A DNA stretch of 64,000 nucleotides. It comes from a virus (taxonomy: Duplodnaviria; Caudoviricetes). Every line of letters starts with the position of its first letter. The stretch's first letter is position 1. The DNA lies in the IMG/VR virus record IMGVR_UViG_3300033066_000802, positions 1-64,000 of that record; one strand, written 5' to 3'. Below, piece after piece: positions 11,011-12,484 of the stretch. The notes under the pieces are model-generated. The model had not been told where the DNA came from and did no database searches. It saw only the letters and a list, made by a program, of their open reading frames with translations. A program made the position numbers and the translations under genes.

Positions 11011-11130
11011 ATTTCAACTTTTAGATTAACCCCAGAGTTGACAACTGTGCTGGCATACGATCCAGAGGCAAGGTTTCACCGTTCTTATGAGAGGTGTGCC
11101 ACATCTTCGCTCCCTTGCGCTTCGGGCTTT

Positions 11131-11808: not shown

Positions 11809-11881
11809 GTTGCGAGAGAAGGATTTGCACCCCCGACCTTCGGGTTATGAGCCCGACAAGCTACTACTGCTCTATCTCGCA
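11809..11881 (-). tRNA. tRNA-fMet(CAU)
   Basis: TCGGG-CT CAT AA-CCCGA (three G-C pairs); 5' end overlaps HNH C-terminus. Confidence 0.85.
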
Positions 11882-12439
11882 ATTTAATATTTTCAATATT
11901 CCATTATCGAACTCCCAATGATGATTTGGACATAACGCCATTAAATTATCGATATGGTTAATTTCTTCTATAGTACTATTATCACAAAAATCGGAAACCG
12001 CTTTAATGTGCGCCACTTCGTAGTGATTATGGTACCCACAATAACAACAAATTTTCAATTTATCAGACTCGTTGAAAACGTAGTTAGCATGTTTCCGTAT
12101 ACTCGTCCTGGCTGACTGCCAATTCTTATGTTTACTAAAAATCTCAGATTTGGTTAGTCCTGTTAAAAATTTAAACGGCATTTTAACTTTAACCGTTTTT
12201 GATTGCTCAATCTTTACTTTTTTAGAATTGTTGTATGATGCAGCACAACTACGATTACAAAACTTTCTAACTCTAACCTCTCTGGTTTTTTCGTGAGACC
12301 TTACCTCAATTATTTTTTCGCAATAATGGCATTTATTTGGATTCTGGTAATACCTTGCTAACGCTCGTTCACGTTGTTTTGCGTTACCAATGGCTGCGGC
12401 TTTTTGATGTTTATTCAGTTCCATACATATAAATAGCAT
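11864..12439 (-). CDS. HNH homing endonuclease
   Basis: FCNRSCAA Zn finger, EVAHIKAV...NHIDNLMALCPNHHWEFD; probable start MELN at 12424. Confidence 0.9.
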   Translation of the reverse strand: MLFICMELNKHQKAAAIGNAKQRERALARYYQNPNKCHYCEKIIEVRSHEKTREVRVRKFCNRSCAASYNNSKKVKIEQSKTVKVKMPFKFLTGLTKSEIFSKHKNWQSARTSIRKHANYVFNESDKLKICCYCGYHNHYEVAHIKAVSDFCDNSTIEEINHIDNLMALCPNHHWEFDNGILKILNCEIEQ

Positions 12440-12460
12440 AGAACTTTCGAAAATACCATC

Positions 12461-12484
12461 CGCTACACACTGCTCTACCCCGCT
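12461..12484 (-). pseudogene. Orphan 5' fragment of tRNA-fMet
   Basis: AGCGGGG-TA-GAGCAGTGTGTAGCG; can pair with the acceptor 3' strand at ~11811-11817 with a 1:72 mismatch. Confidence 0.78.

Follow-up and report, generated by a model that had tools for sequence, protein, structure and literature searches.

Free-standing endonucleases in phage tRNA clusters, an endonuclease specific to tRNA-fMet and partial duplications of neighbouring genes beside free-standing homing endonuclease genes (HEGs) are already known. SegB of phages T4 and T6, as presented in passages of two reports, is a free-standing GIY-YIG homing endonuclease encoded in a tRNA gene cluster, which targets the tRNA genes of related phages and drives the inheritance or amplification of neighbouring tRNA genes (PMC2330249; PMC13096335). 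According to a passage of the first report, the stop codon of T4 segB lies at the junction with tRNA-Arg, where, in the authors' proposal, the message is cut during tRNA maturation (PMC2330249). A further passage cites work from 2004 on T5, in which the ORFs of the F-Tfl free-standing endonucleases are interspersed among tRNA genes (PMC2330249), and part of the second report describes how homing endonucleases were recently shown to amplify phage tRNA genes as a counter-defence (PMC13096335). The PD-(D/E)XK endonuclease I-Ssp6803I is encoded in a self-splicing group I intron of the Synechocystis tRNA-fMet gene (PMC1995217). In fungal mitochondria, free-standing HEGs occur with partial duplications of atp6, atp9 or cox1, and in one case the N-terminus of atp9 is duplicated (PMC7487136). 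The passages of the SegB papers considered here describe neither a tRNA stub nor a nested tRNA arrangement (PMC2330249; PMC13096335), and the literature searched gave no description of a layout of tRNA stub, nuclease and tRNA, nor of a clade of HNH enzymes linked to initiator tRNAs.

Such a layout was analysed in a 64,000-nucleotide stretch of viral DNA (hereafter the window), which makes up the first 64 kb of one virus contig (154,611 bp, 31.7% GC). The best explanation, to which we assign a probability of roughly 0.7, is that a free-standing HNH homing-endonuclease cassette resides at a tRNA-Met gene, that the orphan tRNA 5' fragment (stub) in front of it is the scar of entry into a tRNA-fMet gene and marks the left boundary of the mobile cassette, and that the tRNA behind it is an ordinary whole gene.

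Anatomy of the nuclease loci in the tRNA array

The minus-strand tRNA array (16149-4860) adjoins a gene for a T5-type DNA-transfer protein (PHROG 1745, E 1.5e-149), by which the phage is predicted to be T5-like. ARAGORN found 21 tRNAs in the array, and Rfam added a few odd ones. Among them lie four HNH genes, which belong to at least three families; three of the four have a same-strand tRNA stub within 100 nt upstream. No integrase gene was found among the array ORFs scanned, and the repeated tRNA segment is the 5' end, not the 3' end that an att repeat would duplicate. Rfam scans of the window returned no intron family, and the HNH gene of the fMet locus lies between a stub and a whole tRNA.

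All features of the fMet locus lie on the minus strand. It begins with a 24-nt stub, AGCGGGGTAGAGCAGTGTGTAGCG (12484-12461), of which nt 1 to ~23 correspond to the acceptor 5' strand and the D stem and loop. The stub is identical to independent initiator tRNAs at 20 of 23 positions, and a match of this quality anywhere in 64 kb on both strands has an estimated chance of ~1e-4. In a comparison with 681 tRNAs of all isotypes, the seven sequences nearest to it were without exception tRNA-Met(CAT), and it also has A11. By its sequence, the stub is thus a genuine initiator-tRNA 5' end; nt 1-15 are certain as tRNA, and nt 16-24 are at the same time similar to the left end of the leader in related cassettes. 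Pairing of its AGCGGGG with the 3' acceptor strand TCTCGCA of the downstream tRNA yields four Watson-Crick and two G-U pairs with A x A at 1:72. The sequence-only reading had described this pairing and its initiator-type mismatch; the pairing is there, but the mismatch is functionally meaningless, as 600 nt separate the stub from that 3' strand.

A conserved leader of 36 nt (12460-12425) separates the stub from the HNH gene and can be aligned with the leaders of the related loci L001, L004, L005, L007, L041, L051, L087 and L104. It contains the palindrome TTTCGAAA (12452-12445) and the motif TATTTAT (12435-12429) ahead of the HNH start at 12424. This motif stands within 25 nt upstream of 20 of the 131 genome ORFs of at least 100 aa, two array HNH genes included, against ~1% by chance, and is therefore probably a phage promoter or initiation signal. 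As a motif of start regions it is common to the window phage and the relatives L001, L041 and L127. Its presence in the leader, together with its use throughout the genome, therefore indicates that the cassette uses the phage's own start signal. A search for a sigma-70-like promoter in this leader found none. The leader was also considered as the decayed rest of the stub's tRNA and rejected, since its local alignment to the 5' and 3' parts of tRNAs was no better than that of shuffled sequences.

The HNH gene (12424-11864) encodes 186 aa beginning with MELNK; the first-listed ORF start at 12439 is too early, as all relatives start at MELN or MEEL, corresponding to ATG 12424. The predicted nuclease combines an N-terminal CxxC...CxxxC zinc finger (zf-FCS-like; zf-FCS 3.6e-05) with a C-terminal HNH_2 domain (PF13391, 37 bits against a cut-off of 21, E 3e-09, residues 131-181 of the 191-aa listed ORF). 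The catalytic and zinc residues C126, C129, H139, N160, C165 and H169 are invariant in a ten-sequence family alignment. The end of the gene, TGC GAG ATA GAG CAG TAG (C-E-I-E-Q-stop, 11881-11864), is at the same time nt 1-18 of a complete tRNA-Met(CAU) (11881-11809; ARAGORN, and 61.8 bits with the Rfam tRNA model). This tRNA has the anticodon stem-loop TCGGG CTCATAA CCCGA with a GGG:CCC stem and, as read from the D stem GAGC/GCTT, the pair A11:U24 (A11:T24 in the DNA), so that it is of the initiator type. Its 1:72 pair is T:A, a weak Watson-Crick pair in place of the classical C x A mismatch, which makes it initiator-like, not a textbook member. The order of stub, TATTTAT, HNH gene and codon overlap given in the sequence-only reading was recovered at every position.

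The Thr locus, a third one of this layout that the sequence-only reading did not mention, is the clearest case of a nuclease with its own tRNA nested between the halves of a resident tRNA. The cassette (11010-10379) lies within a resident tRNA-Thr whose 34-nt 5' half (11010-10977) is followed by a leader, an HNH_3 gene (10920-10492), the cassette's own whole tRNA-Thr (10501-10428), a 14-nt spacer and the resident 3' half, consisting of the T-arm and CAGAGGC (about 10414-10380). This acceptor strand is the exact complement of the stub's GCCTCTG; the order of the parts and the complementary halves therefore define the cassette as a nuclease accompanied by its own tRNA and set within a resident one. 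At the Val locus, a stub (5687-5661) of ambiguous isotype, which has AGCC in common with the downstream tRNA-Val, precedes an HNH gene of another family (PHROG 2255, 5627-5106), and tRNA-Val (5102-5029) begins 3 nt after its stop; the likeness in layout to the fMet locus that had been pointed out before is thus borne out. The fourth HNH gene (8050-7622) runs 10 nt into tRNA-Gly(UCC) (7631-7557); it has no stub, and a whole tRNA-Gly(ACC) stands just upstream. When a tRNA-5' profile was run over the whole 154-kb genome, the better matches outside tRNA genes included only the Thr and Val stubs. For the fMet and Val stubs, no 3' half (T-arm plus CCCCGCT or TACGGCT) was found in the array; only the Thr stub has a partner.

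Further unusual sequences were observed in the array. A tRNA-like sequence at 12826-12709 (minus strand; Rfam 33.8 bits) carries, in place of the anticodon stem-loop, 56 nt that include the T-arm-like GGGTTCAAATCCC. Directly 3' of a weak tRNA-like sequence (10059-9982) begins a sub-threshold match to the HDV-like ribozyme family RF02682 (9981-9914, minus strand; 35.3 bits), and L041:1570-1638 gives a second one (42.6 bits; gathering score 44).

An HNH family at tRNA-Met genes

Searching with the HNH protein of the fMet locus revealed 601 homologues, of which the best is encoded on L041, a 2.6-kb Logan contig (77-78% protein identity). Loci with relatives were retrieved from 125 sites, giving 91 non-redundant sequences. 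The Met anticodon loop CTCATAA occurs within 80 nt after the stop in at least 27 of these 91, against 1.5 expected, and ARAGORN places a tRNA-Met at -47 to +8 nt from the HNH stop in ~25 loci. Members that are similar over their full length, with the zinc-finger N-terminus, mostly lie immediately 5' of a tRNA-Met. Within phage tRNA arrays, the family is thus at home at tRNA-Met genes. Compared with unlinked tRNA-Met genes, the nuclease-linked tRNAs did not show consistently greater divergence from the initiator consensus in their 5' regions, and no consistent 'immune' change was seen. In a separate observation, the tRNA-Met beside the nuclease often measures 84-89 nt and has an extra arm between the anticodon and T arms, unusual for tRNA-Met (L001:3599-3685, L042:4547-4630, L051:2048-2132, L142:1249-1332).

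Other routes to close relatives were less productive. The exact 44-nt tRNA pattern and the HNH gene of the Val locus gave no match. In a megablast search against GenBank phages only the tRNA itself matched, in Lak phages, which have no HNH gene upstream of it, and the 50,697 phage records searched with tblastn contained no more than five weak matches, none of them in T5.

In order to assess how closely stubs are associated with the family, matches to the initiator 5'-end 14-mer with at most three mismatches were counted outside annotated tRNAs. The 250-nt windows upstream of HNH starts (18.4 kb) contain seven such stubs against 0.25 expected (P ~1e-8), and the other 294 kb contain four. Together with the stubs at three of the four array HNH genes, this enrichment upholds the earlier claim that the stub is tied to the cassette. 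At the left edge of the conserved leader, stubs beginning with AGCGGGGT occur in the window, L041, L047 and L051 in four different upstream contexts; other Met-type stubs were found in L142, L005, L019 and L100. When the window is compared with L041, homology sets in at the stub, spans the leader and the gene and fades within the tRNA, and the flanks are unrelated. Since the stub is common to L041, L047 and L051 at the left edge of a conserved cassette, it may have arrived with the cassette and need not be the locus's own former 5' end. A homology boundary at tRNA position 1 in four contexts would fit break repair with the tRNA as the left arm. In L075, a distant relative, a stub is followed by a whole tRNA-Met with no HNH gene between them.

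A sister group with an HTH N-terminus was observed inside the anticodon loop of tRNA-fMet, with both tRNA halves intact (L087:1138-1960, L090:937-1758, L104:1007-1818). The nucleases of L087 and L104 are 53% identical. The tRNA of L104, when spliced in silico, is 91% identical to the tRNA-Met gene MetB of the nuclease-free relative L140 (see below), and the tRNAs of L087 and L090 differ by a compensatory D-stem change (G10:C25 to T10:A25). A hairpin at the 5' end of the insert co-varies among these relatives. A group I intron in L087 and L104 was considered and rejected, as there was no Rfam group I match and the insert does not end in G in any of the four junction registers that are possible. 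The intron mode of ARAGORN mostly joins halves of neighbouring tRNAs, and its calls were credible only for L087, L090 and L104. The inserts reflect either recent homing or an unrecognised form of insert removal. In L100, three different tRNAs (333-445, 615-728, 934-1045) share the same anticodon-loop insert of ~40 nt with two hairpins (ACAACACTATTGTGTTG...GTTTG..CAAAC).

Origin of the stub, the tRNA and the codon overlap

The most informative comparison is between L041 and L140, an IMG/VR sequence whose DNA-transfer protein is 75% identical to that of the window and which has much of the array order in common with it, although it is only partly syntenic. L140 has the order MetA, 28-nt spacer, MetB, 140-nt element, tRNA-Thr, with neither an HNH gene nor a stub. 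In L041, nt 1-31 of MetA are followed by unrelated sequence, the AGCGGGGT stub, leader, HNH gene, tRNA-Met, the same ~140-nt element and a near-identical tRNA-Thr. The two layouts therefore imply that, when the cassette entered L041, the resident tRNA-Met (MetA) was truncated where its anticodon loop starts and all sequence from there to the end of MetB was replaced; the incoming cassette thereby appears to contain a whole tRNA. Presence versus absence between syntenic genomes, a criterion for free-standing HEGs, was observed twice, for L140 versus L041 and for the window versus L140 at the Thr locus, where the ~140-nt element ends at 11011, exactly where the uninterrupted tRNA-Thr of L140 starts. 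A relative that lacks the HNH gene and keeps both fragment and full tRNA had been named as the finding that would refute the sequence-only reading; the syntenic L140 has whole tRNAs and no stub and is therefore not such a relative. A nuclease-free allele of the exact fMet locus was not found, and the 67-aa and 66-aa ORFs that flank the cassette have no relatives in IMG/VR.

At the position syntenic to MetB of L140, just before the 140-nt element, the window has an odd Met-like tRNA (11226-11135, minus strand) that neither ARAGORN nor Rfam detected. It combines a CTCATAA loop and a GGGG/CCCC stem with a long extra arm whose loop is CGAAAG, and there is no pairing between its 5' and 3' acceptor strands. 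The ~140-nt element itself lies between tRNA-Met and tRNA-Thr in all three sequences (window 11134-11011, minus strand; L140:15606-15746; L041:786-922). The window and L140 are 91% identical in the 3' half of this element, which may be a structured RNA.

On the preferred reading, the unit consists of an initiator-tRNA stub, a conserved leader with a phage-type start signal and an HNH gene, and sits flush against a complete initiator tRNA. During mixed infection the nuclease would cut a nuclease-free tRNA-Met gene at a putative site, and the break would be repaired from the cassette-bearing genome. Homology would be provided by tRNA sequence on both sides, the stub on the left and the whole tRNA on the right, so that the recipient would end with stub, HNH gene and tRNA whatever its former flanks. 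As proposed for T4 segB, an RNase P cut at the tRNA 5' end would strip the stop codon from the HNH message and could limit nuclease output. As no 3' half of the stub's tRNA lies nearby, we infer insertion into a resident tRNA gene at the fMet locus by analogy.

A more far-reaching version joins several of these points. The stub would be a selected, portable left homology arm; stub, HNH gene and tRNA would form a self-contained 'cut-and-replace' cassette that enters any initiator-tRNA gene regardless of its flanks and is a main driver of tRNA turnover in phage arrays; and the inserts of L087, L090 and L104 would be removed from the RNA without a recognisable group I intron. As a whole, this combination is a tentative proposal and rather improbable.

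The stub might alternatively have been kept for a job in the cassette, either as a putative target-like operator for self-repression of the nuclease or as a promoter or RNA-processing signal, which would be compatible with an origin as a scar. I-TevI represses its own promoter through a target-like operator. AAAT-AGCGGGGT is kept in place 37-60 nt upstream of the start, beside the conserved palindrome, across lineages whose HNH proteins are only 47-77% identical, which speaks for a function. The stub length, however, varies (8, 10, 15-24, 31 nt), many members have a tandem 21-nt motif instead of a stub (L001, L007, L049, L056), and no sigma-70-like promoter was found at the site. We consider such a retained function unlikely.

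The sequence-only reading had gone further and proposed that the HNH gene rebuilds the tRNA 5' end from its own last codons. Taken literally, the cassette would have landed after ~nt 24 of a resident tRNA-fMet, and the working tRNA would be a chimera of a 5' end supplied by the cassette and the resident 3' two-thirds. Formally, the layout does correspond to an insertion in which 24 nt of the tRNA 5' end were duplicated. Moreover, TGCGAG, with G6, is common to the tRNAs of the window and L041, whereas the nuclease-free MetB of L140 has TGCGAA, and in L051 the stub can form all seven pairs (7/7) with the 3' acceptor strand, which the contiguous 5' strand does not match. In the window, by contrast, it is the contiguous 5' strand, TGCGAGA, that forms all seven (7/7), G6:C67 included, and thus pairs better than the stub with its two G-U pairs and one mismatch. 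Over the whole length, the tRNA is 79% identical to MetB of the HNH-free L140 and 64% identical to the tRNA behind the HNH gene of L041; in nt 1-18, the agreement is 15/18 and 12/18, respectively. The incoming segment contains a whole tRNA both in L041, as compared with L140, and at the Thr locus. The perfect pairing, the greater identity to L140 and the lack of a nearby 3' half therefore point to a tRNA-Met that is, judged by its sequence, a whole and coherent gene and not one repaired with nuclease codons. A chimeric origin is accordingly quite unlikely.

The codon overlap has a simpler origin. The HNH gene of L041 ends with AAA ATA TAA, followed by CAT and then the tRNA, whereas the window reads AAA ATA TTA AAT TGC GAG, and the ORF runs on to the first in-frame stop, which lies inside the D loop of the tRNA. 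The resulting seven-residue tail LNCEIEQ is confined to the window protein; none of nine aligned relatives has it, and the others end near FDNG-x-LK-I/L. It is thus only because the ancestral stop was lost that the ORF reads 18 nt into the tRNA. In other family members the stop is found either 0-8 nt ahead of the tRNA or, in different frames, 2-47 nt within it, and two other HNH genes of the window stop at T8-A9-G10 of the next tRNA. The overlap is a lineage-specific accident of stop-codon loss (TAA to TTA) and not a rebuilding device.

That the stub is an unrelated, decaying tRNA pseudogene which lies upstream of the HNH gene by chance is very improbable; other broken or odd tRNA-like sequences do occur in the array (12826-12709, 11226-11135, 10059-9982), but the stubs close upstream of three of its four HNH genes, the family-wide enrichment and the stub position common to L041, L047 and L051 all argue against coincidence.

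Comparison with known systems

Phage tRNA arrays are fluid, and the fMet locus and related loci point to a way in which nuclease genes could carry tRNA genes from one phage to an unrelated one. A cassette with conserved tRNA sequence as its homology would leave short tRNA stubs behind, and annotators should be aware that a tRNA fragment in a phage array can mark a cassette boundary and need not be noise. With the HNH clade specialised on initiator-tRNA genes identified here, the predicted cut site is directly mappable.

The cassette resembles SegB, as the latter is presented in the passages considered here, in being a free-standing nuclease within a phage tRNA array, and its stop at the junction with the next tRNA is comparable. 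However, SegB is a GIY-YIG enzyme that recognises a T-loop motif of many tRNAs, whereas the family of the fMet locus is of the HNH type and tied to tRNA-Met. With the F-Tfl endonucleases of T5 it has in common nuclease ORFs among tRNA genes, in a phage that is itself predicted to be T5-like from PHROG 1745, but its HNH protein has no detectable T5 match in the tblastn search of the 50,697 phage records. Like I-Ssp6803I, the family is specialised on initiator-tRNA genes, and the sister members in L087, L090 and L104 also lie in the anticodon loop of tRNA-fMet. I-Ssp6803I is intron-borne, whereas the predicted enzyme of the fMet locus is of the HNH type, free-standing and encoded upstream of the tRNA, and even the anticodon-loop cases have no group I signature. 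The fungal HEGs are similar in that an endonuclease gene stands beside a partial duplicate of its neighbour gene, left as a pseudogene piece; they differ in having protein-coding organelle hosts and LAGLIDADG or GIY-YIG enzymes, the host here being a phage tRNA gene. Finally, integrase-borne islands and prophages likewise enter tRNA genes as mobile elements and keep one copy whole by means of a duplicated segment. Those elements restore the 3' end of the tRNA, whereas the fMet locus duplicates the 5' end, with neither an integrase nor att-type recombination, and its cassette presumably entered by break repair and not by site-specific recombination.
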